DNA of 35,147 bases, taken from NCBI GenBank assembly GCA_035293265.1, contig DATDOL010000107.1, positions 1 through 35,147 on the forward strand. Direction: 5' to 3'. Of this stretch, positions 4,142 to 35,147 are shown piece by piece; the first letter of the stretch is position 1, and the number at the start of each line of letters is the position of its first letter. The translations under genes and the position numbers were made by a program. The notes under the pieces were generated by a model. The model ran no database searches and had not been told where the DNA came from. It saw only the letters and a list, made by a program, of their open reading frames with translations. This stretch comes from Ignavibacteriaceae bacterium. Lineage in GTDB: Bacteria > Bacteroidota > Ignavibacteria > Ignavibacteriales > Ignavibacteriaceae.

Positions 4142-4722
4142 TAATTTTCCTCCTGGGCACTGAATGAGTCCTCAGCCCCGGATTCTTTTTTCTTTTTTAA
4201 TAGAAAGTAAATGAATGAAAGAGCACCCAGTGTTATCGCTAAATCCGCAATATTAAAGACGTAAATCCCGATTGTATTATCAAGTATAAAAAGATTTGCA
4301 AATCTTATATCTAAAAAGTCAACCACGCTACCTGATAATATGTTTCCATATCCATAAAACCAGCCGTAAAATATTCTATCGATTAGATTACCAAATGCAC
4401 CGCCTATAATCACAGCAACCGGAAGTCTGATTGAAAGATCCTGGTTTTTAATTGTAAAGAGATAAATAACCAAAGAAGTGCTTGCAATGATTGTAAAAAT
4501 TGAAAAGATTAGTTTAATATCGGGGTGAAGGTCTATACCAAAGGCAATGCCCGGGTTTTCAACAAGAGTTATGTGAAAGAAATTATTTAAAACAGGGATG
4601 CTGTCTCCGTGTTTCAATCCGGAATGATGAAAATCAAGCAGAGTAAAAGTAAAACCTTTTACAAATACTTTAGTAAACTGGTCAGTGAAAATAATTAAAG
4701 CGGATACAAGTAATACTTTCAA
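4141..4722 (-). CDS. lspA: Lipoprotein signal peptidase (signal peptidase II), paralog 1
   Basis: 193 aa and multi-TM. Motifs ENPGIAFG, GNLIDR and FNIADL are present. Confidence 0.85.
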   Translation of the reverse strand: MKVLLVSALIIFTDQFTKVFVKGFTFTLLDFHHSGLKHGDSIPVLNNFFHITLVENPGIAFGIDLHPDIKLIFSIFTIIASTSLVIYLFTIKNQDLSIRLPVAVIIGGAFGNLIDRIFYGWFYGYGNILSGSVVDFLDIRFANLFILDNTIGIYVFNIADLAITLGALSFIYFLLKKKKESGAEDSFSAQEEN

Positions 4723-19554: not shown

Positions 19555-21066
19555 TTAAGAAGTGATTTTTTCCAGCAGTGAAATTAAATCTTTTTTAGCA
19601 AAAGGTTTTACTAAAAATTCATCTGCGCCGGCTCTATAAAATTGCTGAATCTTATCCCGCATAAATTCACTTGATATTATCAGCAAAGGAATTTTTACAG
19701 CATTATCAGTCTTAAGTCTTTTACAAAGGTCAATCCCCTTATCCCAATAATTCTTTGTGATATCCATTATAATAACTCTAAAGTTATCCTCACCAACAAC
19801 TTTAGAATCAAATCCTCTGTAATTATATACTTTTATCTGATAGCTGCCTTTAAGAAAGGCCTTTAATAATTCGAAAGACTCTCCTGTATCATCAAGCATT
19901 AATATTTTAGCAGCACCATTTGCTTCAACAGTATATTTTTCTTTAATCAAAACACTCTTTTTAGACAGCGGCAATGTAAAAGTAAAAGTTGTTCCGACAC
20001 TCTTTATGCTGTCAACAAGCAATGATCCACCCATTTTTTCGATATATCTTTTAGCTAAAGCCAATCCCAAACCATTGCCTTCAAAATTTCTTCCAACATC
20101 CAGATTTTCCTGGCTGAATGGACGATAAAGATGATCAAGGTATTCGGTTGAAATCCCGATCCCTGTATCCTTAACTTTACAAACAGCGAGGTCTCTCTCC
20201 TTTAGCAACCCGACTTCAACATCTATAAAACCCTGCTGGGTAAACTTGACTGCATTATCCAATAAATTATTAATCACATTTTCGGTGCACTGTAAATCTA
20301 TTTCAACAAGCATACTATCAGCTTCAAAACTTGTTTTAAAGTCCAATTTTTTTTCTGCTGCAATTTTTTTATACGGTGCGACGCAATGATTAAATACATT
20401 TATCAGATCATAGCTTTCAATATTTAACTGGTAATTACCGGCTTCAATCTGGGCAAACTCAAGCATTTGGGTAATACTTTTAAACAACCTTTCGCTGCCT
20501 GAATAAAGATTGTCAAGGTAAACTTTTTCTTCATTGCTGATTCTATCTTTCAGATTTTCCTTAATAATAGTTGCGTATCCGAGAATAATATTAAGCGGAG
20601 TTCGCAGTTCATGTGACAGCACATTCAGAAATGTACTTTTTAATCTTTCGGCTTCTTTACTGGCATCACGGGATTTCTGAATTTCATTTTCTGCAAGTAT
20701 CATTTCTGTATGATCTTCATGCAGAAGTACAGCGTAATTTTTGTTTTGATACATTAACGGGAAAATGCTCGTTCTAAGCAACGGTACTGCGGCTTCTCGA
20801 TTAACAAGAAGACTATCACTGTAATTGTTTATCGAAGCATAGGTTTTATTTTCCAGAGTATCCGTGATTGATTGTATAATTCCATTTCGTCGCAACTCTG
20901 GATCTTTAAAAATAACATATTCCTGGAGTTCTGTCATTGAATAGCCCCACTGAACAATAAATTCGTTATTGATGTAAACTATATAACCTTTTTCATCAAT
21001 GATTTGAACAGGGAACCGCAGTGAGTCGTAAAGCAGTTTAAAATATTTATCAATAGTATCTGACAT
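19555..21066 (-). CDS. Hybrid sensor histidine kinase (PAS, HisKA, HATPase_c, receiver)
   Basis: H-box LSHELRTPLN, N-box NLLDNAVKF, G-boxes DTGIGIS and GNGLGLALAKRY. The C-terminal receiver has LMLDD, IIMDI and KPF. Confidence 0.9.
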   Translation of the reverse strand: MSDTIDKYFKLLYDSLRFPVQIIDEKGYIVYINNEFIVQWGYSMTELQEYVIFKDPELRRNGIIQSITDTLENKTYASINNYSDSLLVNREAAVPLLRTSIFPLMYQNKNYAVLLHEDHTEMILAENEIQKSRDASKEAERLKSTFLNVLSHELRTPLNIILGYATIIKENLKDRISNEEKVYLDNLYSGSERLFKSITQMLEFAQIEAGNYQLNIESYDLINVFNHCVAPYKKIAAEKKLDFKTSFEADSMLVEIDLQCTENVINNLLDNAVKFTQQGFIDVEVGLLKERDLAVCKVKDTGIGISTEYLDHLYRPFSQENLDVGRNFEGNGLGLALAKRYIEKMGGSLLVDSIKSVGTTFTFTLPLSKKSVLIKEKYTVEANGAAKILMLDDTGESFELLKAFLKGSYQIKVYNYRGFDSKVVGEDNFRVIIMDITKNYWDKGIDLCKRLKTDNAVKIPLLIISSEFMRDKIQQFYRAGADEFLVKPFAKKDLISLLEKITS

Positions 21067-21068
21067 TT

Positions 21069-22385
21069 CTAATTCACAGGTAATGAAAATTGAATCGATG
21101 TTCCGTTATTACTTTTCAATAATACAATCTCACCGTTATGACGATCGATAATGCTCTTACAAAGAAACAGACCATAACCACCTTTATGCAAACCAAATGT
21201 ATCAAATGAACCGGCATTAATATGTTTGGGTAAACCAGGACCGTCATCCGACATAATTACACAAATTTTATTGTCTTTTTCAAATGACTTTATAAACATC
21301 GTCACGTCTTTTTTTGCCTCTGCAGAATTTGTAATAAGAAGAACTATCAAATGCTGAATTTGTTCTGAATCATAATCGCACAGCGGTAATGCATTTAATT
21401 CTGTTTTAAAGATAATCGAGCTGTATTTTTTCATAGGAGAAAGATATTTAATGACAGATTGAATTGTTCTATTTAAATCCCCGCTGTCTTTGTTAAGATT
21501 CATAATGGAAGTTTCCAACAGCACCTGCGCATATTTCTGTATGCTGCGGATGCTATCGACAGCAACTTTAGACTTTAGCTTGAGACGGTCAAAAATCAGT
21601 GATTCGGGTGCATCTGTTGTGTCATCAAATTCTAACTGAGTTTTTTCAATCATCCTTAATAAACTTTCTGTTTCAAGAAGTGCAAGATGTACAAGTCCTT
21701 GTAATGATTTTCCAATCTCTGCATCAATGCTGGATTTTAATGTTTTTCTTTCTGCTTCTATCAACTGGGCATTGGCTTCCTGCAAAGCATTATAAGCGGC
21801 TATCTGTCCATCATAAAGTTGTGCATTACGAATTGCTGAAGCTGCCTGCCCGGCTAAAATTTCAAAAGTACCTGTTATTTCCCTGACTTTAACTTTTTGA
21901 AGATGTTTGCTATCGACGTAAATAACACCGATCTTTTTTTCATTGGTTATCAGCGGTGAGCAAAGAATTGTTTGCAGATCTAACTGAAGAATACTTTTTG
22001 TAGGATCGTTGGCTGAATCACTTTGTGCGCCTTCAATAAAAATTGATTGCCCGTTTAAGAAAACGTCTTCTACAACAGTGTTGCTTACTAGAAAAGAACT
22101 TTCCGATAAGGAATGATTCTTAGAATCCATTCCAATTTTATATTCGAGGGTTCCGAGAGAATTTTGAAGAACAATAAATCCGCGTTCTGAGTTTGTAAGT
22201 CTTATGGCATTCTTCAGCACAAGTTCAAGTACATCTTCCAATATTAATGAGCGATTTATTGTATTAACAATATTTAGAATCGCTTCAAGATTTTTTACTC
22301 TTTCGGATGATTCATCTTCTGTGAGAATGTTTTTAATTCCATCATCAATATTCTTTTTAAATTCCGAGAACTTCACCACATTCAC
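21069..22385 (-). CDS. GAF-domain sensor kinase-like protein with HATPase_c (non-canonical dimerisation/His region)
   Basis: The N-terminal GAF-like region reads SERGFIVLQN...IGVIYVDS. The C-terminal ATPase boxes are ITNSAEA, DDGPGLP and GGYGLFLCKSII. I see no clear HExxxP H-box. It lies 2 nt upstream of the hybrid kinase gene. Confidence 0.75.
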   Translation of the reverse strand: MNVVKFSEFKKNIDDGIKNILTEDESSERVKNLEAILNIVNTINRSLILEDVLELVLKNAIRLTNSERGFIVLQNSLGTLEYKIGMDSKNHSLSESSFLVSNTVVEDVFLNGQSIFIEGAQSDSANDPTKSILQLDLQTILCSPLITNEKKIGVIYVDSKHLQKVKVREITGTFEILAGQAASAIRNAQLYDGQIAAYNALQEANAQLIEAERKTLKSSIDAEIGKSLQGLVHLALLETESLLRMIEKTQLEFDDTTDAPESLIFDRLKLKSKVAVDSIRSIQKYAQVLLETSIMNLNKDSGDLNRTIQSVIKYLSPMKKYSSIIFKTELNALPLCDYDSEQIQHLIVLLITNSAEAKKDVTMFIKSFEKDNKICVIMSDDGPGLPKHINAGSFDTFGLHKGGYGLFLCKSIIDRHNGEIVLLKSNNGTSIQFSLPVN

Positions 22386-22434: not shown

Positions 22435-25400
22435 TTAATCTTTTAATAGTTTTAAAGAGATAAACCATTCCCAATCATTCATTTTATTTGACCAGGCTTT
22501 AGCAATTCCTGCTGAGAGTGTTGACTCTAAATTATACCAGTGCTTTAATTTTAAATCCATCTGCGCACCAACATCAATCCAGTAATCTCCCAAATCAGAA
22601 CGTGTTAATAATCCTTGTGAATAAACCGAAAAATCAACATGATTAAGCAGCTGATTTGCGAGCTCAATGTTGCTAAATCTAATTGGTGGAAAAGCGTTTT
22701 CAAACAATATTTTTGCAAATTTCTTAGTCATCATGCTATAGATTGGAATCCCAGGAAATCTGAAAACTTTTCTAAACTGCTTAATTTCGTCATTATCAAT
22801 TCCTCTGTTTCCAAAACCACCAAAATAAAACCTTGCCTGGACCAATTGTTCATTATCCCAGAGATAACCACCCGCAAATTTTACGTGTAAAACGTTATGA
22901 TGTGCAATCCAGGTTGAAAAATCACTGAATTCCGCATAAGTATTTACTGCTGTTTCAAGAGAGTCAAAATTTGTACCGTATAACGTTAATGTATAGTCGA
23001 AATTTGTTCCAAACTCATAATCTGAACTTCCAATGCTTCTACGCAAATTTTTTGAATTTAGATTGGTTGCTAAAACAGAAAAATCCGGCTGAGAAACTCT
23101 AACTAAGTTATCGTTAACAAACTCAACACCTCTATAAACAGTAAGCGTTGATGATTGCTTAATCTTAAGTGGATTATCATACTTCCAGAAATGAGTGTGT
23201 CCAAGTTTATAACTTTCGCCCAGCATACCTCTTTTTCTATTATTAAATAAATCAAAGAATTCAGGTCCATTGTAGCTGACTTCTAAAAATAAAAACTGTT
23301 TAAAATCATACTTAAATTTTAAATGAAACAGCGGATAATCTGGTGTTTCTTTGAGAGGTGAGACACCCACTTCTATATTAAAATCATGAATTAATAACGG
23401 ATCACCGATACGTGTGAAAAATCCAAACACAACCTGGTTTTGAAATCCGCTGACTACCGGCACAAATGAATGAATGTTCAGGTTTGATAAAGCATTGTAT
23501 TCTTTTTCTTTGGTGTAGCCGAATGGATCGCTGGTTTCATAAGAATCAGGCAGCACCCATTTCATAACTTCCGGGTATTTATTAAGAATTTCCTGACCCA
23601 TATAATTTATTGCCGGTAAATAATCTGCCGGCTGGTTTAACAGCATAACCGGAATAAATCCATCAGTTGTATACTCAAAAGCCAGTAATGAATCACGAGA
23701 AATCTCTATTGGTTTAACAAGACCTGTGAGACAATGTGAAATTGCTTTAACGCTCGAACTTTCAAAACTGTATCTATAAATATTTGATACGCCATTTGTA
23801 AACGCGTTCCAGTAAAGGAATTTTCCATCTTCACTCCAGGATGGATTTTCAGGACTTCCGCTGCTTGTTAATGTGCTGAATTCAAAATTTCCACCAGACA
23901 ATAATTTTTTTATATTCGTTAATATTATTGACTGAAGTCCATTAGATCGATGAAACACAGCAGAAAGTTTATCCCCGGTTTGATTCACAGCCAGATTGAA
24001 AATATCATCGCCAGCTTCAAAGGAAGCGATTTGACTAACCTTGTTGTAAGGATAAGGCATAACAACCAAAGTTTTTATTCCCCCGTTAACTTCTACTCCC
24101 CAGAGGTCACGTGTTCCGGGTGAAATACTTAAATCTCCTACCCTGTAATTTTCAAATAATAATTTTTTCTCGCCGGATTGTGTATCTAGTACCCAGATAT
24201 CCCTAAACAATTGATTATTATTTGTTGTAAAGAAAAATAATCCCGTACCTGGATCGAAAGCAGTTGATGCAACCTGGATCATACTCGGTGTTGGTAATGA
24301 TTCAATATCTTTTCTTTCTTCGGACCTGAGATCAAGTTTTTGTATTGAAGCAAGCTGATGCGATTTATGGTAACCGAAAAAAATATTTTGTGTCAGAGCG
24401 TCAAAGTGAGGCTGTGTTACCCATCCAAAGGCTTGATTACCAATTCTTCTTAGCTGAGTTGTTTCAGATTTATTTAATACTTCGAGGTTTATTGATTGAA
24501 ATTCTTTTTCATGAAGTATAAAGTCTTCCCAGGCTTCATCAAAGTCCTTATTAAATACAGTTTCAAATTTATTTTTAAATCCCGGATAAGAATCGTCTGG
24601 TTCAACCTTTATCCACTTAATCAGATTTTCATAACCATATACTATGCTGAGATAACATACAAACCTTGCTCCATAAATATAAGCGAGTGTTTCAAGCAGT
24701 ATTGAATTATGACTTCCAATTGTTTCTATTTCCAGTTGAGAGGAGAAATTTTTCTTTTCAAGCATGAGTGTCCTGAAGTACATTTCATCAAAACTTCCCA
24801 ACAGTCTTCCATAACCACCGCTAAACCAGGTTTCAATAAATACTGCAAAAGATTCTTGATACCATCTTGGAGTATATCTTTTAAAATTAGTTAACAAACT
24901 ATAAACAATTGTTGTCGGCTGAATTTTCTCAGGAGGAACTTTCCCAAAAATTTTACGCAGAAATGCTTCCACTCCGGTAGAATGATCGTTCACAACAATA
25001 TGTACAAGTTCATGACTTAGTAGCCATTGAATTCTGTCATTATAAGGAACAATTTCGTAACCTGGTTCAAGAGGCTCTATTTCTAAACGAATAAAGTTCT
25101 GAGGAACAGTTGTTATGCTGCCAAAGCCAAAATCGTTTACATCATAAGTATTGATAATAATTTTTTCTTTCGGTTTATAATCAAACAAATTCATAAGAGG
25201 TTTTAAAGCATTCTCAGCGTCGCTCAAAATCTTATTAATCAGGTATGCATGATTTTCTCTGTAAACTATTTTAAAATGTTCACTTTCACGTTCATACCAA
25301 TCGGAATCTGTTCGTTCAAAAAAGTGAATTCTAATTTCCTCTTTGCTGGCAGAATTTAACAATTCAACTGCAACTTTTTCAGAAATATTTTTTAAATAGA

Positions 25401-26064
25401 TTTCTACGTTTCCCTGGTCATTATAAACCAGTATATCTTCAATTAATCCTTTTGGCTTCAGATCAGCAAATTCTTTTGATATTACATTCGAATTCATTAT
25501 TCTAAGAATAAAAATACCTCCGCCGGTATTTGCAAGACGAATGTTGATTTGTTCCTTTGTTTTTAAATACAAATATGTATCGTTTTCCAATTCACCAATT
25601 TTTATCTGCATGACTGAATTCACCCCGGGAATTTCATCAGCGAGAGATATTTTATTAGGACTTAAGATAATTATTGCTCTATGATATGCAAGACTAAAAA
25701 GTTCAACAGCTTCATTCATCGACACAAAAATCAATTTATCCATTAAATGGGAAGATCTTTTTAACTGATGAGAAATGAATTGGTTTGTTTCTTTTGAATA
25801 AATAGTTGCAAATGGATTCCTTGAAGTAAAGGACAAAATATTATCGGGAAAATCAATTTCAATTTTTTCTGAATTGTCGGATACTGTTGATACAAGTTTA
25901 AGTGCGTCTGCAATTTTTTCAACAGCTATGTAAATTGTTCCGTTAAAATTATAAGCTAGTATTTGAAATGAATTGTTTTTTATTGTGAATGTTACGCTGG
26001 AAATTGTTTGTGCAGTTAAAAATGCATTCAAGAGAGTGAGGAATAGGAGTGTGTTTTTTAGCAT
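22435..26064 (-). CDS. Large secreted protein: signal peptide, peptidase-MA-like HExxH domain, PD40/TolB-like beta-propeller repeats, putative C-terminal beta-barrel
   Basis: 1209 aa. Signal peptide MLKNTLLFLTLLNAFLTAQ. It has SEHFKIVY, then HELVH (25000-25014), then a downstream WYQESFAVFIETW (gluzincin-like third ligand). PD40-like repeats include SPENPSWSEDGKFLYW...SNIYRY. The C-terminal ~350 aa has an alternating beta-strand pattern with FYFGGFGNRG. Confidence 0.7.
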   Translation of the reverse strand: MLKNTLLFLTLLNAFLTAQTISSVTFTIKNNSFQILAYNFNGTIYIAVEKIADALKLVSTVSDNSEKIEIDFPDNILSFTSRNPFATIYSKETNQFISHQLKRSSHLMDKLIFVSMNEAVELFSLAYHRAIIILSPNKISLADEIPGVNSVMQIKIGELENDTYLYLKTKEQINIRLANTGGGIFILRIMNSNVISKEFADLKPKGLIEDILVYNDQGNVEIYLKNISEKVAVELLNSASKEEIRIHFFERTDSDWYERESEHFKIVYRENHAYLINKILSDAENALKPLMNLFDYKPKEKIIINTYDVNDFGFGSITTVPQNFIRLEIEPLEPGYEIVPYNDRIQWLLSHELVHIVVNDHSTGVEAFLRKIFGKVPPEKIQPTTIVYSLLTNFKRYTPRWYQESFAVFIETWFSGGYGRLLGSFDEMYFRTLMLEKKNFSSQLEIETIGSHNSILLETLAYIYGARFVCYLSIVYGYENLIKWIKVEPDDSYPGFKNKFETVFNKDFDEAWEDFILHEKEFQSINLEVLNKSETTQLRRIGNQAFGWVTQPHFDALTQNIFFGYHKSHQLASIQKLDLRSEERKDIESLPTPSMIQVASTAFDPGTGLFFFTTNNNQLFRDIWVLDTQSGEKKLLFENYRVGDLSISPGTRDLWGVEVNGGIKTLVVMPYPYNKVSQIASFEAGDDIFNLAVNQTGDKLSAVFHRSNGLQSIILTNIKKLLSGGNFEFSTLTSSGSPENPSWSEDGKFLYWNAFTNGVSNIYRYSFESSSVKAISHCLTGLVKPIEISRDSLLAFEYTTDGFIPVMLLNQPADYLPAINYMGQEILNKYPEVMKWVLPDSYETSDPFGYTKEKEYNALSNLNIHSFVPVVSGFQNQVVFGFFTRIGDPLLIHDFNIEVGVSPLKETPDYPLFHLKFKYDFKQFLFLEVSYNGPEFFDLFNNRKRGMLGESYKLGHTHFWKYDNPLKIKQSSTLTVYRGVEFVNDNLVRVSQPDFSVLATNLNSKNLRRSIGSSDYEFGTNFDYTLTLYGTNFDSLETAVNTYAEFSDFSTWIAHHNVLHVKFAGGYLWDNEQLVQARFYFGGFGNRGIDNDEIKQFRKVFRFPGIPIYSMMTKKFAKILFENAFPPIRFSNIELANQLLNHVDFSVYSQGLLTRSDLGDYWIDVGAQMDLKLKHWYNLESTLSAGIAKAWSNKMNDWEWFISLKLLKD

Positions 26065-26159
26065 TTATAAATGAGTAAAACAATAATATCGATTTTAGGT
26101 TTAGTTTTTATTTCTCATTTAAAAGTAAACAAAATTAAAATATCATGTTTAATCGATAT

Positions 26160-26192
26160 AAAAAAAGCCTTCAAATTAAATTTGAAGGCTTT
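26160..26192 (-). terminator. Rho-independent terminator downstream of the repeat-peptide gene
   Basis: Arms 26164-26177 (AAAGCCTTCAAATT) and 26179-26192 (AATTTGAAGGCTTT) are perfectly complementary. Read on the minus strand, the hairpin is followed by a U-run (complement of the A-run 26160-26166). Confidence 0.75.
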
Positions 26193-26231
26193 TAAAGTAG
26201 GCAATCTGGAGAACTAATTTATACCACTTTA

Positions 26232-26717
26232 TTACCGAACCCAACCATAAAGGCTGCCAAGTTCATCAAGCTGTGTCGATGATCTTACCCAACCATATAA
26301 GCTGCCAAGCTCATCAAGCTGTGTTGACGATCTTACCCAACCATAAAGGCTGCCAAGTTCCTCAAGCTGTGTCGATGATCTTACCCAACCATAACGGCTG
26401 CCAAGTTCCTCAAGCTGTGTTGATGATCTTACCCAACCATATAGGCTGCCAAGTTCCTCAAGCTGAGAAGATGCTCTCACCCAACCATAACGACTACCAA
26501 GTTCCTCTAACTGCGTATTGGAACGCTGATCGAGAACTCTGATGTCAGAATGATTTTCCTCAAGAATTGAGGTATTGTTGTGGGATTCAGTAACAGCAGT
26601 TATATTATCCTCTGAAATTCGATATCGGATTGCCTGATCTACATTGTCGGCAATCTGGGCGATTCCAGAAAAGAATAGTCCCCCACAAATAACCAGGGAT
26701 AATATAAGAAAACGCAT
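26232..26717 (-). CDS. Secreted tandem-repeat peptide precursor: signal peptide, ~60-aa unique region, then six 16-aa units SSTQL[E/D]ELGS[L/R]YGWVR
   Basis: The ORF track starts at GTG 26726, but the ATG at 26717 gives MRFLILSLVICGGLFFSGIAQ, a typical signal peptide. Six in-frame 48-nt repeats fill 26235-26522, and the stop follows the last Arg directly. A sigma-54 promoter lies upstream and a terminator downstream, both on this strand. No known family recognised. Confidence 0.75.
   Translation of the reverse strand: MRFLILSLVICGGLFFSGIAQIADNVDQAIRYRISEDNITAVTESHNNTSILEENHSDIRVLDQRSNTQLEELGSRYGWVRASSQLEELGSLYGWVRSSTQLEELGSRYGWVRSSTQLEELGSLYGWVRSSTQLDELGSLYGWVRSSTQLDELGSLYGWVR
26235..26522 (-). 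repeat. Six contiguous 48-bp tandem repeats (coding, in frame)
   Basis: Unit boundaries are 26235, 26283, 26331, 26379, 26427 and 26475. Units are near-identical with scattered substitutions that are mostly synonymous. There are no spacers between units. Confidence 0.95.
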
Positions 26718-26777
26718 AGCGCCCACTCACTTTAATTGATAATGACACACTTGAACTGCGATTACAACTCACCCGAA

Positions 26778-26795
26778 AACTGTGTGCACACAGTT
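26778..26795. promoter_or_regulatory. 18-bp perfect palindrome AACTGTGTGCACACAGTT in the predicted 5' leader of the repeat-peptide gene
   Basis: The sequence equals its own reverse complement. It lies between the sigma-54 promoter (26817-26831) and the start codon (26717). It is comparatively GC-rich for this intergenic region. Confidence 0.5.
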
Positions 26796-26816
26796 CAGTT
26801 TAAGCAGATAAAAAAC

Positions 26817-26831
26817 CCAATGTTTGTGCCA
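26817..26831 (-). promoter_or_regulatory. Sigma-54 (-24/-12) promoter candidate: TGGCAC-AAACA-TTGG
   Basis: The minus-strand sequence TGGCACAAACATTGG matches the TGGCAC-N5-TTGC consensus with correct spacing and one mismatch (final C to G). It sits ~100 nt upstream of the repeat-peptide ATG and next to a sigma-54 activator gene. Confidence 0.65.
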
Positions 26832-27038
26832 TTAGAAAAGAGATAATCAATTGAAATTTTAATCTATTTAGATGATATGTAAGGAAATAATTACCAAAAT
26901 TCTCACGTAATTATTCTAATTTGTAAAAAATAGTTACAGTTTTTTGAAATTACACTAACTATTTCATCAATAACTTAAGTGCGAAAATTTACAAAAAATG
27001 AGGGAATTTGAAATCAATTATTCGAAAAACGAAACAAG

Positions 27039-28424
27039 CTACTTCTGTTTTTCCAACAAAGTATCAAGTTTAGGTCGTGAAATGCCAAGCAATTTTGCTG
27101 TTCGTGTTTTATTTCCCTGCAGCTTTTCCAGAACTTTTTCGGCATAAAATTTCTCTAGTTTCCTCAGGTTTGTCGAGCCATAGTTCACTTCAAATTTTAC
27201 CATATGCCTGTTCTCTTCAAATTGATTTTCATCATGAATAGCTTTGATAGAAACTGATTTAATCAGATTTGAAAAATCATCAAGTGTCAATCTTCCATTA
27301 TCTGAAAGTAAAACAGCACGCTCAATCGCATTTCTTAATTCTCTAACATTTCCCGGCCACGGATATCCTAAAAGAAAATGTTTAATGTCTTTATCAACCT
27401 TCCTGATTGTTCTATTAAACTGCTTATTGAATTCTGTAATAAAATGATTAGCCAGAATGATCACGTCTTCACCACGTTCTCTCAACGGAGGTACGTCAAT
27501 AGTAACAACATTAAGTCTATGGTAAAGATCTCTTCGAAACAAATTTTCTTCCACCATTTGTTCAATATTCCTATTTGTTGCTGAAATTATTCTTGCATTG
27601 ATAGGAATATCCACCACTCCACCTAATCTTTTAATCACTTTTTTTTCAATTGCGCGCAACAGTTTTGTTTGAATATTAGGACTAAGATCACCAATTTCAT
27701 CCAGAAACAGGGTGCCTCTGTCTGCTAATTCAAACAAACCGATTTTTCTGTTCCTTGCACTAGTAAAAGCCCCGGCTTCATAGCCGAATAATTCCGATTC
27801 CAGCAAACTTTCGGGAATAGCTGTGCACACAATATCTATAAATGGAAATTGACCTGTTCTCCCATTGTTATGTATTGCTCGTGCAAAAAGTCCTTTGCCG
27901 GTGCCGGTTTCCCCAAGTAATAACACACTTGCGCCGCTTTTTTCCGAAACCTTTTTTGCAAGATCCACTACACGAACAAATTTATCCGATTCACCTATTA
28001 TGGATTTGAGACCACGTCGATTTATCCCAAATGCACCTATTCGATCGGTTTCGGTAATGTAAGATTTGTTTGAAATAACCTCGGCAAGAAATGAAGTGAA
28101 TTTGAGTATTTCGTATGGAAATATAAAAATATCATGAAATCCTTTTTTAAGAAGAGAAGTAACCTGGAGCGAGTCTCCGTTCCGCATTACAATCAAAAAT
28201 ATATTTGAATTTTCTCTCCTAGTTGCCAGAGCTTTCTTAAGAAATAATGATTCCTGTGATTCGATGTGCAGAACAATAATCTCATTATCAAAAACTTCAA
28301 AATTCTCTTCGAAGCTTACAGAGATAGGCATCCCTTTGAGTTCCAATTGCTTAAGGGCAGATGATACTGAAACTGTATCCTGTGAATCGCTAAATACTTT
28401 TATTTTAATCTGGGAATCGGACAT
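27039..28424 (-). CDS. Sigma-54-dependent transcriptional activator (bEBP, NtrC family) with degenerate N-terminal receiver-like domain
   Basis: AAA+ core: Walker A GETGTGKG, ESELFGYEAGAFTSA (GAFTGA loop, 27756-27773), Walker B LFLDEIGDL, and WPGNVRELRN. The C-terminal Fis-type HTH is TRTAKLLGISRPKL. The preferred start is ATG 28424 (MSDSQIK), 4 nt after the kinase stop. The ORF track begins at 28451. Confidence 0.9.
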   Translation of the reverse strand: MSDSQIKIKVFSDSQDTVSVSSALKQLELKGMPISVSFEENFEVFDNEIIVLHIESQESLFLKKALATRRENSNIFLIVMRNGDSLQVTSLLKKGFHDIFIFPYEILKFTSFLAEVISNKSYITETDRIGAFGINRRGLKSIIGESDKFVRVVDLAKKVSEKSGASVLLLGETGTGKGLFARAIHNNGRTGQFPFIDIVCTAIPESLLESELFGYEAGAFTSARNRKIGLFELADRGTLFLDEIGDLSPNIQTKLLRAIEKKVIKRLGGVVDIPINARIISATNRNIEQMVEENLFRRDLYHRLNVVTIDVPPLRERGEDVIILANHFITEFNKQFNRTIRKVDKDIKHFLLGYPWPGNVRELRNAIERAVLLSDNGRLTLDDFSNLIKSVSIKAIHDENQFEENRHMVKFEVNYGSTNLRKLEKFYAEKVLEKLQGNKTRTAKLLGISRPKLDTLLEKQK

Positions 28425-28428
28425 ATAT

Positions 28429-31400
28429 TTAAACCGAACTGTAAGCCTCAATTTTTTCTAAGGCTAACTTAACATCCTTCTGATTTATATATGAGTTCCT
28501 TAACTGCGGAGATTGAATATTTTCTGCAATAAAATTTATCAATTCCTTTGCATAGATAAAAAAACCTTTAGCTCTGTTAAAATTTCCTCTTTCTATATAG
28601 ATATCAGATTGCATCAATAAAACCTTCCAGGTCAATTCTGTAATGCTCTCATCCTTTATTAATTCATACGCTCTTTCCAGGTATTCAATCGGTGGCGAAA
28701 GTCTTTCAGACTCATAAACCGATGCAATTTTTGCCAGAAAATATTCCCTTTGTGATTCTAATATACTGTTTTGATTAATTATTTCAATAAATACTTTGTC
28801 ATTTATTTCGTTTAACGCTTGCTCATAATTCTTTTGATCAATTAAAACTTTGATAATTGTAAAATTTACTTCGGTATACTTATTTCTTTCGTCCATCTCA
28901 ACAAAAGCGTCTCTGATTGATCTTAATCCACTCACCTCAGGAAATTTATTGTCCAGAATTTTATATAAGGCATCGATATACTTCAAGGAATATTTATGCT
29001 TTGGCAGTAAATTTTTTTCTTCGATTAATTTTCTAAATCGATCTAAGATATCTCTCATTCTATTCATACTACCAATCAGGTTATAGAAATTGCCGTAAAG
29101 GTAAAGCACTTCAGCAAGTTCTTCATCATTCTCATTCGCTTCAAAGATTTGCATCGCTTGCTGCAGGGAATTAAAAACATGCTGATACTCGCATCCTATC
29201 ATGTATACCTCAGCAAGATTGTACAAAACCAGACCCTGATTTATTTGATTACCAAGGCTTAAAAATATTTTAATTGCATTTTTGTAGTTCTCTACCGCTC
29301 TATCAAATTTCTGGTGATTATAATAATAGATTCCTGTATTTAGGAGTATCAATCCTTCCTGTTCAAGGTTTCCAATAGATTCGTTTATATCCGATGCCCT
29401 GTTCCAATGTTCTTCTGCTTTTGAATGGATTCCTAAAATATTGAATATGTTTCCTACATTGACTTCAACTCCTGCAACGCGCCGTGGCAATCCTGCCTGT
29501 TTATAATTTTCAATGGCGAACATAAACTCTGTAAGAGCAGAATGAAGATCATTATTCTTATATATATAGCACATCCCAAGCAGGTTGTGACAGCGGCCTC
29601 TGAGTTCAAACGATAATTTTTTATCCTTTAAAAGTGATTTACTTATTCTCGAAGCTTCGTCATATATTTTTTGTTCAAATTCAGCATAAGCCATCTCTAC
29701 AAATATTTTATGTTTCAGGGTTACGTCGACTTTCCGTTTCAGCAATTCATTCAGCATTTTTTTAGCTTCATCAAATTTACCAACGTTAAAAAGTGAACTG
29801 CTTTTCAAAATTTGAATTTCAGTCTGAACCTTATCATCAAGATTTATTCCCTCTAAAGAATTTATAACCTCTAATGCTGATTGATAATCACTCATTTTAT
29901 AATATACATCGCAAAGTTTTATTTTAACATCGGTTTTCTTTATACCCCTGAGTGGTAATCCGGCTAAATGTTCCAATATTTTTTTCATATAAGAATATGC
30001 TGAATGTTTTTCAACATCTTCAATTTCTATGCACATCGTTTCATAACACAAATCATATTTTCCTGCAAGCTCATAATGTCTGGCTAATTCACTTCTATTA
30101 AAATATTGCAGATTTTTTTTGATTCTTTCCGCAAGCACCAGGTGAAGCCCGGTCTTATTTTTAACAGAACTGTATATATGCTTCTTAAATCCATCTGAGG
30201 TTATCAATAACGAGCTGCCTGATGTAAAATGCTGCAGAACATTATAAACCTGAAGTTTGAAAACTATATCAGAAATTTTTTGAAATGGGATGTCAAGTAG
30301 TGCTACAAGTGTGTTCATCTCAATGACAACATCCAAAGCCGAAATAATTTGAACAACTTTTAATTCTGTTTTCGAAAAATTCTTTAATCTATAATCATAA
30401 AGCACTTCATGAGAACTTTTTAATACCCGTATCGCTTCTTCATTTTTATTTATTTCCACTCCGGATGGAAGATGCCTGACGATCCCAAGTAATATTAAAT
30501 CCTTAATAAACGATACTATGCTGCCAGGCAATAAATCAGCGTATTTGACTATGAGATTAATCAATTCTTCCCGGGGAAAGGACGCTGAGTAACTTTGCTT
30601 TATGAATTCTGTGACCTGCACATCGGTAAACGAACTGAGTAAGACATCTCTTACATTATTAATTTCTGTTGATTTGTAACGGTTGTCAGCTGTTTCGGCG
30701 AGAATTATTTTTATGCTGTTTACCTGAAAAATTGGAATGATCGAACTAAGTATTTCAGAGGATAAATCATCAAGCAGGTTGAAGTCATCAATTAATAAAA
30801 TAAACTTAGTCTTTTTAGCAATTAAAGAAATTACCTCCGGCAGCCGAAGTACAAAGCTGGAATCGGATTCATCAGTCAAAGAATTAATTTTTGTAAGTTC
30901 TTCTGTTGAAAGAAAATCATAAACCGATTTTGAAAAAACAATTTCTTTCAAAAGGTATTTAATTAATTTTATCCCGGACTTTCCTTTTTGATTACTGACC
31001 ATAACAGAACCGGGATAAATTTCGTGTACCCTATTCAGTATTGCTGTCTTTCCAGCTCCATCAAATCCTTTTAAAGTAAAAGCCTCACTGCTTGTTTTAT
31101 CATTTATGTAAACAAATAAAATGTTGAGAACATCCGTTCGATCTGAAAATACTTTTGCGGGCAGGAAATCTTTTGTAATCGAGTCATCGACTTCAATTTC
31201 CAAATCACTTAAAACCTGTAATGCGTTTTGAAATCTATCTTCAGGGTTTTTAGCAAGAAGCTTTTTAACAACCTCAATTAGTTCATTTGAATATTTTATA
31301 GTTAGAGGAAAGTCAAATTCATTTTCTAACTTCGATTTATAGATTGCAAGTTCATCCGATGAATTAAAAGGAAACCTGTCATAAATAATCCTGTAAAGCA

Positions 31401-31995
31401 TCATCCCGAGAGAATAAAGATCAACCCTGTGATCATGTTCTTCCTTCTTCAGCAGTTCGGGAGCGATATACTGTGCAGTACCTTTGACATCATTTTTAAG
31501 CTCTTCACTTCCAAGCTGTGCAAATCCAAGATCAATTAATTTAATGACCGGGTTTCCACCGGGGTTTGCGACCAGAATATTTTCGGGTTTCAGATCATAG
31601 TAGATGTAATTTGATTGATGAAGATAATACAAGACTGAGCATATTTGATTTAGTATTATTTTTAATGATAATTCATTCCTTATAAAAACGGATTGAAGCA
31701 GCTCGCTTGATGGAAAATATTCAAGTGTGATGAATGGAACCCCGGATTCAACAGCATCGTTCTCGCTTTTTTCCAGAATTGTTCCAATCTCAAGAGCGCG
31801 AATGATATTCGGATGATCTAGTTTTTTTAAAGTGAAATACTCTCTCCTGAAATATTCTCTTTCAACATCATTTGCCCCGGATGATAAAACTTTTATGGCA
31901 ATTTCAGCATCCATAAACTCAGCGTCTTTACATATGTAAACAGCACTGCGGCCTTGTCCGATTTTTTTAATTATCTCATATCGTTTATTAATCAT
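28429..31995 (-). CDS. Hanks-type Ser/Thr protein kinase fused to a P-loop NTPase (STAND/AAA_16-like) and a long TPR-like helical-repeat C-terminus
   Basis: Kinase motifs: IGQGRSAVY, IAIKVL, YYDLKPENILV (31594-31602 encodes YYD), IDLGFA and YIAPE. Walker A GFDGAGKT lies at 31045-31068, followed by Walker B LLIDDFNLLD. The C-terminal ~550 aa contains repeated TPR-like helical pairs. Its ATG overlaps the OppC-like TGA (ATGA). Confidence 0.85.
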   Translation of the reverse strand: MINKRYEIIKKIGQGRSAVYICKDAEFMDAEIAIKVLSSGANDVEREYFRREYFTLKKLDHPNIIRALEIGTILEKSENDAVESGVPFITLEYFPSSELLQSVFIRNELSLKIILNQICSVLYYLHQSNYIYYDLKPENILVANPGGNPVIKLIDLGFAQLGSEELKNDVKGTAQYIAPELLKKEEHDHRVDLYSLGMMLYRIIYDRFPFNSSDELAIYKSKLENEFDFPLTIKYSNELIEVVKKLLAKNPEDRFQNALQVLSDLEIEVDDSITKDFLPAKVFSDRTDVLNILFVYINDKTSSEAFTLKGFDGAGKTAILNRVHEIYPGSVMVSNQKGKSGIKLIKYLLKEIVFSKSVYDFLSTEELTKINSLTDESDSSFVLRLPEVISLIAKKTKFILLIDDFNLLDDLSSEILSSIIPIFQVNSIKIILAETADNRYKSTEINNVRDVLLSSFTDVQVTEFIKQSYSASFPREELINLIVKYADLLPGSIVSFIKDLILLGIVRHLPSGVEINKNEEAIRVLKSSHEVLYDYRLKNFSKTELKVVQIISALDVVIEMNTLVALLDIPFQKISDIVFKLQVYNVLQHFTSGSSLLITSDGFKKHIYSSVKNKTGLHLVLAERIKKNLQYFNRSELARHYELAGKYDLCYETMCIEIEDVEKHSAYSYMKKILEHLAGLPLRGIKKTDVKIKLCDVYYKMSDYQSALEVINSLEGINLDDKVQTEIQILKSSSLFNVGKFDEAKKMLNELLKRKVDVTLKHKIFVEMAYAEFEQKIYDEASRISKSLLKDKKLSFELRGRCHNLLGMCYIYKNNDLHSALTEFMFAIENYKQAGLPRRVAGVEVNVGNIFNILGIHSKAEEHWNRASDINESIGNLEQEGLILLNTGIYYYNHQKFDRAVENYKNAIKIFLSLGNQINQGLVLYNLAEVYMIGCEYQHVFNSLQQAMQIFEANENDEELAEVLYLYGNFYNLIGSMNRMRDILDRFRKLIEEKNLLPKHKYSLKYIDALYKILDNKFPEVSGLRSIRDAFVEMDERNKYTEVNFTIIKVLIDQKNYEQALNEINDKVFIEIINQNSILESQREYFLAKIASVYESERLSPPIEYLERAYELIKDESITELTWKVLLMQSDIYIERGNFNRAKGFFIYAKELINFIAENIQSPQLRNSYINQKDVKLALEKIEAYSSV

Positions 31996-33281
31996 ATATC
32001 AAGACGCGGATTAAAAAATTTGTTTAATCTTCTTCCAAAATAATTTGCGGAAAAAAGTGTAACGACCAGACAGCCGCCCGGAAATATGATCATCCACCAG
32101 GCTTTTGTGATGTATTCCTGTCCTGACTGTATCATTGCCCCCCATGAAGGATAACTGTCTCCGGTACCTAAACCAAGATAGCTCAGAGCAGATTCTGCAA
32201 GAATAACATTGCTGAATTGAAAAATTAAATTTACAATTACGGGGGCGATGATAACGGGCAATATTTCCCTGAACAAAATTTTATTCGATTTTATTCCGAG
32301 AAGTTTTGAGGTTTGTATATAGTCTTTTTGCTTGAGGGAATTTACTTCTCCTCTTACTATCTTAAATAAACTCATCCATCCTGATATTCCCAGTACAATA
32401 ACTACAGCAAATAATGAACTTGAAAACAATGCAAGAATTAAAACAACCAGGTAAATAACTGGAAATGCCAAAAGTAATTCTGCAAACCTGTTAAGAACCA
32501 TATCAATTAAGCCTCCTTTATAACCTGCAATAAATCCCAGTGTAATACCAAGCAGAAACGAAATAAAGACCGCACCGATTCCAACTAACAAGGATATCCT
32601 TAATCCATAAACTAATCTTGTAAATGTATCTCTGCCGAATTCATCAGTACCGAGAAGAAATGTTTTGGTTGTTACCAAGGGTTCTCTATTATCTTTAATC
32701 AATTTATCGTCCGGAATTTCTTTCATAATATTTTTTTGATGATATAATATTTTATCAGATGTTATAGCACCTATACTGTCGGCGTAAATAATACTTTCAT
32801 TAAATACCTCCCTAAGAATTTTTCTTTTATAAAGCAGGAATTTATTTAAAGAGTTACCCTCAGAACTATCTTCAATTTTCAAATGCAGAACTTTAACTTT
32901 GCTTAATGGAGAAAGGTGTTTGGTTACGCTTAAATTTTTCTGAAAATCCGGGTTCCCTCTTGTAATTATTTGCGCCATTAAAAATGTTATAAGCAGAATT
33001 ATGATAACACCGGATGAAAAATTTAGATTATACTTTAAAATTTTTATCCGCCGGTGATAAACAATCATAATTAATGGAACAAGAATAAAAATTATTAAGG
33101 AAAGCAATGAATCAATAAGTTTAAAATCCAGCAGAGTTAAAGCACCATCGAAATCATTGAACAACAAAGAAAAGTATTTAAACCATAAAACTGCCAGTTC
33201 AGTCAACCTCGTAAATTGCAGTAAAATAATTAGCAGCCAAATTGCTGAAGTGAACTGCCATATTTTTAATTTAAATTTCAT
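31992..33281 (-). CDS. ABC transporter permease, OppC/DppC type, with an N-terminal extension
   Basis: LGTDEFGRDTFTRLVYGLRISL and the BPD-transporter EAA-like loop (ESALSYLGLG) are present. At 429 aa it is clearly longer than a canonical OppC, with extra hydrophobic segments at the N-terminus. Confidence 0.85.
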   Translation of the reverse strand: MKFKLKIWQFTSAIWLLIILLQFTRLTELAVLWFKYFSLLFNDFDGALTLLDFKLIDSLLSLIIFILVPLIMIVYHRRIKILKYNLNFSSGVIIILLITFLMAQIITRGNPDFQKNLSVTKHLSPLSKVKVLHLKIEDSSEGNSLNKFLLYKRKILREVFNESIIYADSIGAITSDKILYHQKNIMKEIPDDKLIKDNREPLVTTKTFLLGTDEFGRDTFTRLVYGLRISLLVGIGAVFISFLLGITLGFIAGYKGGLIDMVLNRFAELLLAFPVIYLVVLILALFSSSLFAVVIVLGISGWMSLFKIVRGEVNSLKQKDYIQTSKLLGIKSNKILFREILPVIIAPVIVNLIFQFSNVILAESALSYLGLGTGDSYPSWGAMIQSGQEYITKAWWMIIFPGGCLVVTLFSANYFGRRLNKFFNPRLDI

Positions 33282-34264
33282 ATCACATTTCCCCGAAGCA
33301 GTCTTTTATCAATTTTTAGTTTAAGAAGATCGGCAATAAAATTAGTGAGTATCATTAAAAGTCCGGCAGCAAAAGTACAGCCGATTATAAGAGGATAATC
33401 CCTGGTTAAAATTGAATCAATTGTCAGTCTTCCCATTCCCGGCAAGCTAAAAATAACTTCAGTAATAAGCGTTCCGCCTAAAAGTATTCCTAATTCAATT
33501 CCGGCAACAGAAATAAACGGACCAATTGCATTTGGAATTACATGCTTCCTAAGAATTGTGTTTTCATTTAATCCATTTGCTCTCAGCTGCACAATAAAAG
33601 TTTGGTGATAAATATCTTCCAGGTTATCCCTCAGATACCGATAAAATAAGGCGATTCCGGCTATCGATAAAGTTATCAACGGAAGAATAAGATGGTGAAT
33701 TTTATCAAGAAGTTTTTCAAAATAATTTAATGAATCATAATCGAGTGAAGTAAAACCAGAAGTTGGAAACAAATCTACCTGGACAGCAAGCAGATAAATC
33801 AGCAGAACACCAATTACAAACGCAGGTGTGCTGTAAAAAATCAGCGAGAGGTTGGAAATTAAATTATCGGTATTTTTATTTTGTTTTTGAATAGTGTAAA
33901 CAGCTAAATAATAACTCACGATAATCTGAACAAGGAAACTGATTGCGGCAATCACAAGCGTGAAGGAAAGAAATTCCCACACAACCGAAGTCACCGGCAT
34001 CCGGTAATTGTAAGATATGCCTAAATCTCCTTTAATTAAGTTAGCGACAAAGCTTAAGTACTGCTCGGGAAGCGGATCATTCAGTTTGAAGTCCTCGGCA
34101 ACTTTTTGTGCTATTTCTGGACTGAGTTCTGGTGAAATAAATTTCTGTGCCGGGTTTCCAGGAGAGATCCTTATTAAAATGAACAGCAGACTAATCAGCA
34201 AAAACAGTGTTATTAAAGAAGAGATTAATCTTTTAATAACTGCTTTACTGAATTTATTATTCAT
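33278..34264 (-). CDS. ABC transporter permease, OppB/DppB type
   Basis: 328 aa. The N-terminus is KRLISSLITLFLLISLLFILIRISPGNP. Also present are DPLPEQYLSFV..L.GDLGISY and the EAA-loop region. A 4-nt overlap joins it to the OppC-like gene. Confidence 0.9.
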   Translation of the reverse strand: MNNKFSKAVIKRLISSLITLFLLISLLFILIRISPGNPAQKFISPELSPEIAQKVAEDFKLNDPLPEQYLSFVANLIKGDLGISYNYRMPVTSVVWEFLSFTLVIAAISFLVQIIVSYYLAVYTIQKQNKNTDNLISNLSLIFYSTPAFVIGVLLIYLLAVQVDLFPTSGFTSLDYDSLNYFEKLLDKIHHLILPLITLSIAGIALFYRYLRDNLEDIYHQTFIVQLRANGLNENTILRKHVIPNAIGPFISVAGIELGILLGGTLITEVIFSLPGMGRLTIDSILTRDYPLIIGCTFAAGLLMILTNFIADLLKLKIDKRLLRGNVI

Positions 34265-34270
34265 AAATTT

Positions 34271-35147
34271 TTAATCGCTGATTTTCCATTCCCAGCAATG
34301 TGTGATTGAACCTAGTGGAGTTATGTGTATGTTTTTAATTCTTTTATTATATACTGTAATATTAGGGATCCAGTATAAAAAAGTTACCGGTTGATCATTA
34401 TGAATTATTTCCTGGAATTTAAAGTACAAATCTTTTTTTCTTTTGTCGGATATTTTTTGTTCCAATTCATTAATTATATCGTCCGCTTGTTTATTCTGAT
34501 AACTAACAAAATTCAACGGGGTCATTTCCAGGTCCGAATACCAGTAAGACTTAAGCTCAACAGGAATAGGGATATACCAGGCTGCCATCCAGGCATCCAT
34601 TTTCTTTTCATACAGGTGATCTATAAATGAACCCATTTCAAGATTAACAATTTTCATTTCTATGCCAATAGAAGCAAGATTATTTTTTATGATAGTTGAA
34701 GCATAATTTCTAAGCGGATTGCCGGACGGAAAATATAATGTAAATCTAAACTCTGTATTATTTTTATCTAAAATTCCATTATTATTGGTATCCTTCCAGT
34801 CTTCTGCTGCAAGAAGTTTTTTTGCCGTTTCGGTATTATACTGATATGCTTTTATTTCCGGGTTAAAATATCTTTTAAAAATTTTTGAAACGGGGCTAAC
34901 TGCTATCTCACCGTAATTCAGCAAATACTCTTCAAGAATTTCCTGATTGTTAATTGCATGCGAAAGTGCAATTCTGACATTTTTATTTCCGAAAAGTTTG
35001 TGCAGTATGATTTTATTTTCTTTAGTGAATAATTCCGGATCAATATTATTCCAACCGATATAATCATACTCTCTTCCCACAACTGAAACAATATTAAGCG
35101 ATTGGTTCTTTCTCATATCCTCAATGTCCTCGGTTTTAACAAGTTCC
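34271..35147 (-). CDS. ABC transporter substrate-binding protein, family 5 (peptide/nickel, OppA/DppA-like); N-terminal part lies outside the window
   Basis: The frame stays open to the window edge, upstream of Met 35116. VRIALSHAINNQEILEE, YQYNTETAKKLLAAEDWKD.NNNGILDK and the FTLYF pattern match SBP_bac_5. Confidence 0.85.
   Translation of the reverse strand, partial: ELVKTEDIEDMRKNQSLNIVSVVGREYDYIGWNNIDPELFTKENKIILHKLFGNKNVRIALSHAINNQEILEEYLLNYGEIAVSPVSKIFKRYFNPEIKAYQYNTETAKKLLAAEDWKDTNNNGILDKNNTEFRFTLYFPSGNPLRNYASTIIKNNLASIGIEMKIVNLEMGSFIDHLYEKKMDAWMAAWYIPIPVELKSYWYSDLEMTPLNFVSYQNKQADDIINELEQKISDKRKKDLYFKFQEIIHNDQPVTFLYWIPNITVYNKRIKNIHITPLGSITHCWEWKISD

Follow-up and report, generated by a model that had tools for sequence, protein, structure and literature searches.

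What controls the transcription of a gene that encodes a repeat-peptide precursor and lies next to the gene of a sigma-54 activator? The question is raised by a contig of an Ignavibacteriaceae bacterium (DATDOL010000107.1, assembly GCA_035293265.1), whose 35,147 nucleotides, approximately 35% G+C, were analyzed in full and are referred to below as the window. On the minus strand, a gene for a bacterial enhancer-binding protein (bEBP) is followed by the precursor gene, and between the two a sequence-only reading of the DNA had placed a near-consensus sigma-54 promoter. The comparison with related loci indicates that this element is very probably a functional sigma-54-dependent promoter core, which would drive a monocistronic precursor transcript and be served by the adjacent activator. 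As a promoter it belongs to an ordinary and familiar class; what makes it noteworthy is the clean dissection that nature provides in its orthologues, together with the undescribed and widely conserved gene cluster around it.

The -24/-12 Element in the Window

The core motif TGGCACAAACATTGG occurs as a single copy in the window, on the minus strand, and reads TGGCAC-AAACA-TTGG from 26831 to 26817 (minus-strand context: ctaaTGGCACAAACATTGGgttttttatctgc). TGGCAC occupies 26826-26831, with the -24 GG at 26829-26830, and TTG occupies 26818-26820, with the -14/-13 TG at 26818-26819. The -12 position (26817) is a G where the consensus has a C, and the two doublets are thus spaced GG-N10-GG. The first base of the motif is 114 nt upstream of the conserved precursor ATG (26717), and 208 nt separate the motif from the bEBP stop codon (27039-27041), which precedes it. 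With standard -24/-12 geometry, transcription is predicted to start 12 nt downstream of the -12 position, at about 26805 (26803-26807, minus strand). The motif, strand, spacing and single -12 deviation given by the sequence-only reading are all borne out by the minus-strand reading, and its approximate distances of 100 nt to the ATG and 210 nt from the bEBP stop codon agree with those measured.

Regarding the level expected by chance, TGGCAC is found three times in the window (8.1 expected), and only the copy at 26817-26831 has a TTG partner, so that the claim that no other TGGCAC is suitably paired also stands. The exact pattern TGGCAC-N5-TTGS is found once, as compared with 0.08 expected, and at least one match is obtained in 6 of 100 shuffles. 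When one mismatch is allowed, the pattern is at chance level (three found, 2.35 expected). Taken alone, the match in this single window is marginally beyond chance and weakly significant, and the real support for the motif comes from its conservation in related loci, not from window statistics. Two further candidates were set aside. The sequence TGGCATTATAGTTGC (5813-5827, minus strand) has the canonical GG-N10-GC layout and matches the consensus better, but is located within an isoleucyl-tRNA-synthetase-like open reading frame (ORF; 5524-8670) and was taken as probably a chance match or an intragenic site. Another GG-N10-GC sequence, GGTTTTTTATCTGC (26804-26817), overlaps the motif; it was rejected as a real promoter because its GG is lost in the closest relatives (loci L006 and L008, which read TTGAC at this place).

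Conservation Across Ignavibacteria

The comparison set comprises 82 related Ignavibacteria loci, 80 of which were retrieved by a metagenome scan with a 7-sequence precursor alignment, two long ENA contigs being added to them. The regions compared were the 400 nt located 5' of each precursor ATG. In all of the 52 loci where a bEBP gene is the direct upstream neighbor of the precursor gene, the pattern TGG[CT]A[CT]-N5-T[TG]GN is present upstream of the precursor, at a distance of 54-136 nt from the ATG, mostly 100-120 nt. Conservation upstream of orthologous repeat genes, which the sequence-only reading had proposed as a check, is therefore found in every bEBP-adjacent locus.

The pattern of conservation within the element is uneven. 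TGG at -26/-24 and G at -13 are invariant in the 52 bEBP-adjacent loci, and the -14 position is a T in all of them except L071, where it is a G. The GG-N10 spacing is constant in every orthologue, with zero length variation. The 5-nt spacer depends on the clade (AAACA, AAGCA, TTTCA, TTACA, ATATA or TAACC, among others), and the -12 base in 50 non-redundant loci is G in 30, T in 9, C in 6 and A in 5. Distant members are fully canonical, with TGGCACTTACATTGC in L055 and TGGCATGCCTTTGGC in L071. Judged from this alignment, the invariant positions are those that sigma-54 contacts, and it is the spacer and the -12 base that vary between clades.

This conservation is observed in loci that are not near-identical copies, since bEBP identity goes down to 45-50%. 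In 32 bEBP-adjacent loci, the flanking intergenic sequence is less than 60% identical and the motif is still kept. Of the matches to TGGCAY-N5-TTGN in 602 kb of related Ignavibacteria DNA, both strands included, 53 lie at precursor promoters and 5 at other places.

Paired Palindromes Upstream of the Core

Two palindromes accompany the core element and are candidate upstream activating sequences (UAS). The proximal one, UAS1 (GTAATTATTTC, 26884-26894, minus strand; consensus GTAA-N3-TTAC), is centered at about -83 from the predicted start, and the distal one, UAS2 (TGTAACTATTTTTTACA, 26922-26938, minus strand; GTAA-N7-TTAC), at about -125; both are found in 50 of 50 non-redundant loci. In a motif-anchored alignment of these sigma-54-type loci, UAS1 starts 61-65 nt upstream of the first T of TGGCAY in each of the 50. 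The second element was traced by an unbiased 6-mer count over the 32 intergenic regions with less than 60% identity, where TTTACA occurs in 29 and the top G/C-containing 6-mers are ATGGCA and TGGCAT, the maximum in shuffled sequences being 11.

The centers of UAS1 and UAS2 are four helical turns apart, and their distance is 41-43 bp in 48 of 50 loci (approximately 2 of 50 in shuffled sequences). In almost every locus, the distance from the palindromes to the -24 element differs by no more than a few bp, despite a variation of about 80 nt in the distance from the promoter to the ATG, which suggests that the palindromes and the -24/-12 element behave as one module at the DNA level. Upstream enhancer sites are the architecture expected for a bEBP-dependent promoter (PMC7057263), and both palindromes are putative binding sites of the bEBP.

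The Base at Position -12

GG at -24 and TGC at -12 have been named as the essential elements of sigma-54 promoters (PMC3844500). Among the Salmonella sigma-54 promoters that are bound experimentally, pspA and pspG nevertheless carry TTGT, and STM0649.S carries TTGA (PMC3844500). Since verified promoters lack the C, a base other than C at -12 is compatible with function, and the free variation of the base among the orthologues agrees with this: C at this position is a preference and is not obligatory, and the G of the window is a tolerated deviation, not an exclusion. Strict on/off control is what the promoter class would lead one to expect, and a non-consensus -12 base could leak more in the off state. 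In mutants of the -12 region, non-consensus sequences can loosen the silent state.

The Adjacent Activator

The bEBP gene (27039-28451, minus strand; 470 aa, with the likely true start at the ATG at 28424) encodes an N-terminal receiver-like domain, an AAA+ sigma-54 interaction domain and a C-terminal helix-turn-helix (HTH) domain, with Pfam matches to Sigma54_activat (2.3e-62), AAA_lid_14 and HTH_8. That the promoter adjoins the gene of a sigma-54 activator, as had been noted first from the letters alone, is thus upheld by the domain match, and the activator gene is adjacent in 52 loci. The closest solved relatives are NtrC-family regulators from Aquifex, 4l4u (1.7e-73) and 1ny5, and the alignment with them reaches the receiver domain. 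No NCBIfam equivalog model comes near its cut-off, and the protein is therefore regarded as a generic NtrC-family bEBP.

The N-terminal domain has no match to Pfam Response_reg. At the position of the phospho-acceptor Asp, the bEBP of the window has an H, and Q, K, R, L or F are found in 34 orthologues; judged from its residues, this domain is a pseudo-receiver. The loop that contacts sigma-54 reads GAFTSA in the window and GAFT[S/D/N]A in the 34 orthologues, and the F and the T, described as essential in the GAFTGA loop (PMC7057263), are kept. Directly upstream of the bEBP gene, in a conserved order, is the gene of a Ser/Thr protein kinase of 1188 aa with an AAA_16 NTPase domain and TPR repeats (28429-31995, minus strand; Pfam), the two genes overlapping or being at most 5 nt apart. 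Considering the receiver without Asp and the tight coupling of the kinase gene, it is most likely this upstream Ser/Thr kinase, and not a histidine kinase, that controls the bEBP. An rpoN gene would be expected in the source genome from the general observation that sigma-54 and bEBPs co-occur across genomes (PMC3162934).

Loss of the Activator and Exchange of Promoter Class

In 11 of the loci, the bEBP gene is absent and the kinase gene lies directly upstream of the precursor gene. The -24/-12 motif and both palindromes are missing from all 11. These loci have TTGACA-N17-TATATT or TTGACT-N17-TATAAT approximately 145-158 nt before the ATG, with a score of 11/12, and Ignavibacteria evidently use canonical -35/-10 promoters, at least as far as this clade can be read from its sequence. 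That the core motif and the two palindromes are lost together with the gene of the activator, and that another class of promoter takes their place, is what a functional linkage among these parts would predict.

In the sigma-54-type loci, the best sigma-70 score is mostly 9/12, which corresponds to background, and its positions are not conserved. No sigma-70 consensus was found within the 400 nt upstream in any of the 52 bEBP-adjacent loci, and a conserved sigma-70 promoter in sigma-54-type loci was dropped as a candidate, given background scores only. A -7 element of the type known from the Fibrobacteres-Chlorobi-Bacteroidetes (FCB) group, which the sequence-only reading had named as a rival to its own proposal, was also sought: TAnnTTTG is absent from the intergenic region of the window, and it is unconserved in relatives, being found in 4 of 50 loci at inconsistent positions.

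Several bEBP-less loci have additional features. L021, L024, L027, L060 and L075 have a longer leader after the sigma-70-type promoter, with a hairpin and U-run such as CCTGCTAGGCCTTTAGCAGGGTTAGTTTTTT located just ahead of the start codon, between approximately -65 and -30 relative to the precursor ATG. This leader looks attenuator-like, and regulation may have shifted to the RNA level. In L021, L027, L060 and L075, a conserved ACAA-N3-TTAC element (GTGACAATTATTACAAA) precedes the -35 hexamer by about 24 nt; it resembles a degenerate GTAA-N3-TTAC and may be either an enhancer relic or the site of another regulator. Separately, L037, L044 and L074 contain precursor-like genes with neither a sigma-54 module nor a strong sigma-70 consensus upstream, and with no kinase or bEBP gene within the available flank. 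They may represent divergent family members in other contexts.

The Precursor Gene and Its Transcript

The precursor gene (26232-26717, minus strand) encodes 161 aa from the conserved ATG and contains a 48-nt DNA tandem repeat; the GTG at 26726 given by the ORF finder is not the conserved start. In the protein, a signal peptide and the conserved pro-region N(V)EEAxRYR are accompanied by six units QL(E/D)ELGS(L/R)YGWVRSST, two of them with SRYGWVR and four with SLYGWVR. Neither Pfam nor NCBIfam has a family that matches the precursor. Its homologues number 81, and the few that have a source name are labeled Ignavibacteria or Ignavibacteriaceae. They share the signal peptide and the N(V)EEAxRYR pro-region and harbor 2-8 repeat units with conserved S-x-S-QLEELG spacers and lineage-specific, R/K-terminated cores, e.g., RYGWVR, RYIFVR, RWGWIK, RYGFIK and DFIFLK. 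Many contigs end within or beside the precursor gene, which suggests that the repeat gene breaks assemblies.

The predicted 5' leader would be about 88 nt long (26718-26805, minus strand) and is conserved in the alignment of leaders (L006-L084). It contains a 5' hairpin (AACTGTGTGCACACAGTT, 26778-26795) with three pairs that show compensatory changes. Further along it are the conserved word GTGTCAT (26742-26748) and the sequence GAGTGGG (26722-26728), which resembles a Shine-Dalgarno sequence. Pairing of GTGTCAT with the Shine-Dalgarno-like sequence is possible in 98% of cells, without double changes. The leader of the main clade contains the palindrome ACTACTAGTAGT, the RNAalifold consensus of the leader is weak (-1.9 kcal/mol), and Rfam gave no match in the leader, its sole signal being a sub-threshold Phe_leader on the terminator (26 bits for a cut-off of 55). 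Together, these features faintly hint at a post-transcriptional control of translation or mRNA stability. A four-codon mini-ORF in the main-clade leader, ATG TCA AAC TAC TAG, was dropped as a candidate, being unconserved in the clade of the window.

Downstream of the gene is a predicted intrinsic terminator (26156-26193, minus strand), in which AAAAGCCTTCAAATT-TAA-TTTGAAGGCTTTT forms a 14-pair hairpin (26163-26193) followed by a T-run. Of 42 non-redundant loci, 41 have an equivalent hairpin and U-run, with a dG of -8 kcal/mol or lower, after the precursor gene. This conservation supports the earlier proposal that a terminator closes a monocistronic unit, and the precursor transcript is probably short and separately terminated. 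As a separate observation, the stem sequence itself, AAGCCTTCAA...TTGAAGGCTT, is conserved across clades whose coding regions are about 50% identical; on alignment, this is more than terminator structure alone needs.

Weighing of the Alternatives

The sequence architecture, its conservation and the co-occurrence of the element with the bEBP gene were observed directly, and several readings of them can be considered. Were the motif a functionless chance match in an A+T-rich intergenic region, the marginal count in the window and the fall to chance level with one mismatch would be accounted for; this idea is nevertheless refuted by the comparative data, namely the retention in 52/52 bEBP-adjacent loci, 32 of them with diverged flanks, and the concentration at precursor promoters in 602 kb, which leave it next to no probability. 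Alternatively, TGGCAY...TTG could be an operator, bound by another protein or by the bEBP acting as a conventional regulator, with a weak sigma-70-type promoter nearby providing transcription. Weak sigma-70-like matches of 9/12 are indeed present, e.g., CTTACA-16-TAAAAT at 26883-26856, the bEBP-less clade uses canonical TTGACA/TATAAT hexamers, and the -12 C is missing. However, matches of 9/12 are background in A+T-rich DNA and their position is unconserved, the block is non-palindromic with conserved and variable positions that follow the sigma-54 pattern, and the element co-occurs strictly with a protein whose sole known output is sigma-54 activation, which makes an operator improbable. It is slightly more improbable still that the promoter is of the sigma-54 class but fired by a bEBP encoded elsewhere, the adjacent one serving other targets. 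While bEBPs can act at a distance, genomes often carry many of them, and the binding of the adjacent bEBP to the palindromes is a prediction, the loss of this bEBP coincides with that of the -24/-12 motif and both palindromes, and no second module of promoter plus palindromes was found in 602 kb of flanking DNA.

A further possibility concerns the extent of the transcript and not the class of the promoter: read-through from a sigma-54 promoter might couple the precursor to the downstream genes for a 1209-aa HExxH protein and two histidine kinases. These genes are co-directional, only about 100 nt separate the terminator from the next ATG, and in the window the downstream gene has no noted sigma-54 motif or strong sigma-70 consensus. 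Moreover, intrinsic terminators are rarely fully efficient. The 14-pair hairpin and U-run, conserved in 41/42 loci, point the other way, to selection for termination or for a much higher level of precursor mRNA, and coupling by read-through is accordingly rather unlikely, with a modest chance of being right. A sigma-54 promoter that drives a monocistronic transcript and depends on the adjacent activator thus remains very probable, with several points that weigh against it. The -12 C is absent, being replaced by G, and TTGG is not among the verified examples in PMC3844500; the contact loop of the bEBP is GAFT[S/D/N]A and not GAFTGA; no rpoN was found in the 35-kb window and no RpoN-box peptide in the related locus sequences; the UAS1 of the window has one mismatch, and UAS1 is about 57 bp from the -24 element, i.e., nearer than the commonly quoted 100-150 bp (PMC7057263). 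Lastly, a neighbor-joining tree built from the downstream protein groups the bEBP-less loci in a single clade, nested among the bEBP-containing ones, and the promoter swap therefore counts as one evolutionary event, not as repeated independent tests.

If the promoter is activated in this manner, the following mechanism can be proposed, in which the binding of sigma-54 and of the bEBP, the start site and the control by the kinase are all inferred from sequence. RNA polymerase with sigma-54 would sit in a closed complex on TGGCAC (-24) and TTG (-14/-13), and the adjacent bEBP would dock via its C-terminal HTH on the palindromes centered at about -83 and -125. It would then oligomerize and contact the closed complex over a short loop rich in A/T tracts, ATP hydrolysis by the bEBP opening the complex. 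The transcript would start near 26805 with the leader of about 88 nt, continue through the 161-codon gene and end at the hairpin and U-run (26156-26193).

The Surrounding Gene Cluster

The minus-strand order of the genes is importer, kinase, bEBP, motif region, precursor, terminator, 1209-aa protein, GAF kinase and hybrid kinase, and the order importer-kinase-bEBP-precursor-large protein-GAF kinase-hybrid kinase is conserved throughout the related loci. The importer is an Opp/Dpp-type peptide ABC transporter (31992-35147, minus strand; Pfam), represented by an SBP_bac_5 protein, cut by the window end, and two permeases; the same importer order is present in L085 and L086, where it is accompanied by genes for two ABC ATPases. 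Pfam and synteny assign the genes at 19555-22385 (minus strand) to a GAF histidine kinase and to a hybrid histidine kinase/receiver. Hydropathy gave no convincing transmembrane segment in the Ser/Thr kinase, in the bEBP or in either of the two histidine kinases.

The 1209-aa protein (22435-26064, minus strand) has a signal peptide and PD40/TolB-like beta-propeller repeats, PD40 being its only Pfam match. It is predicted to be secreted. At residue 351 it has the sequence HELVH, an HExxH motif, which every aligned orthologue shares without change, a homologue from Acidobacteriota among them. An orthologue gives a faint Tricorn_2nd match. No solved relative was found by sequence, and the HExxH region belongs to no Pfam or NCBIfam family. 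The protein can be regarded as a candidate processing protease. Several lineages lack its first ~250 residues, and a 30%-identical homologue is present in a metagenome-assembled genome (MAG) of Vicinamibacterales (Acidobacteriota; L003). A scan of a genome collection with this protein returned 4 loci, the closest being Ignavibacteriaceae MAGs; two Ignavibacteriaceae contigs from the scan stop just upstream of its gene, probably owing to assembly breaks at the repeat, and added nothing on the promoter.

A Possible Peptide Signaling Circuit

The combination of an importer, a cytoplasmic TPR kinase, a dedicated activator and an exported multi-copy precursor suggests an autoinduction loop. It is possible, though doubtful, that the promoter is the output node of a self-contained and undescribed peptide autoinduction circuit, similar to quorum sensing and conserved across Ignavibacteria. 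In such a circuit, a Sec-exported precursor with 2-8 short R/K-terminated peptides (SRYGWVR, SRYIFVR or DFIFLK, among others) would be cleaved at the QLEELG spacers by the secreted HExxH/beta-propeller protein, and the Opp-type transporter would re-import the peptides. The TPR module of the STAND-type Ser/Thr kinase would sense them, and the kinase would turn on the pseudo-receiver bEBP, so that the sigma-54 promoter fires and positive feedback results. One sub-lineage would have discarded the bEBP and placed the precursor under a sigma-70 promoter that looks constitutive, followed by a leader resembling an attenuator. A literature search on Ignavibacteria together with sigma-54, rpoN or peptide signaling returned nothing relevant.

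Comparison with Known Systems

Regarding its parts, the locus resembles glnAp2 of enterobacteria, a classical sigma-54 promoter with two upstream enhancer sites, and its activator NtrC. Both have TGGCAC at -24, a -12 element at fixed spacing and two upstream palindromic sites on the same face; in both, the activator is an NtrC-family AAA+ protein with a Fis-type HTH, and transcription is expected to depend on it. The activator sites of glnAp2 are at about -108 and -140, whereas those of Ignavibacteria are nearer, at about -83 and -125, with GTAA/TTAC half-sites in two spacings (N3 and N7). Unlike NtrC, the Ignavibacteria activator has no phospho-acceptor Asp; the -12 base is G in the window and free in the family, and the target is a secreted repeat peptide and not a nitrogen-assimilation gene. 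With TTGT at -12, the verified sigma-54 promoters of pspA and pspG, which are activated by PspF, offer a likeness in the deviating base (PMC3844500). PspF itself lacks a regulatory domain, and PspA controls it in trans. Looping at these promoters is aided by IHF (PMC7057263).

The LuxO-qrr system of Vibrio is comparable in that an NtrC-family bEBP ties cell-cell signaling to the sigma-54 promoters of small dedicated transcripts. The bEBP of the window matches the LuxO model at 3.4e-69, far below the cut-off, and for the hybrid kinase the LuxQ model gives 1.8e-63, which again does not reach the cut-off. LuxO is a genuine phospho-Asp response regulator that receives its signal from a phosphorelay and has small RNAs as targets, whereas the receiver of the window bEBP is degenerate, its upstream partner is a Ser/Thr kinase and its target is a putative signal precursor. 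In Myxococcus xanthus, eukaryote-like kinases are coupled to sigma-54 enhancer-binding proteins without conventional phospho-Asp control, with FHA domains as input domains. The window differs from this in its phylum, in its input domains and in its kinase, which carries a STAND-type NTPase and TPR repeats in the same protein and has an Opp-type importer encoded alongside.

Import-and-sense quorum sensing in Firmicutes relies on Opp and on RNPP-type TPR receptors, and the yeast alpha-factor is a pheromone with a multi-copy precursor. Likenesses to these systems are the exported multi-copy precursor, its putative extracellular processing, the conserved spacers with lineage-variable cores, the oligopeptide permease and the cytoplasmic TPR protein. 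In contrast to Firmicutes, no homology to RNPP receptors is seen, the output would be kinase-bEBP-sigma-54 and not TPR-HTH, and the host is a diderm of the FCB group. Were the signaling loop real, import-and-sense communication, mainly known from Firmicutes, would be extended to this group with a kinase-bEBP-sigma-54 output.

Whatever the signal, the promoter provides a testable handle on an uncharacterized cluster found in dozens of uncultured Ignavibacteria, with promoter, candidate enhancers, activator and target defined to the base. The orthologues also form a natural mutagenesis series, in which the -12 base is dispensable and TGG and TG are fixed, and the bEBP-less clade offers a clean case in which a sigma-70-type promoter has replaced a sigma-54-type one together with the loss of an activator gene.

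Further Observations

In L085, the sequence TGGCATAAGGATTGT (14301-14315, plus strand) is located 84 nt upstream of the GAF histidine-kinase gene, without palindromes; it could be a second sigma-54 promoter, and among the loci it is seen in L085 alone. The rest of the window contains housekeeping genes. Two tandem paralogues of signal peptidase II (Peptidase_A8, lspA-like) are encoded at 3446-4141 and 4141-4722 on the minus strand.

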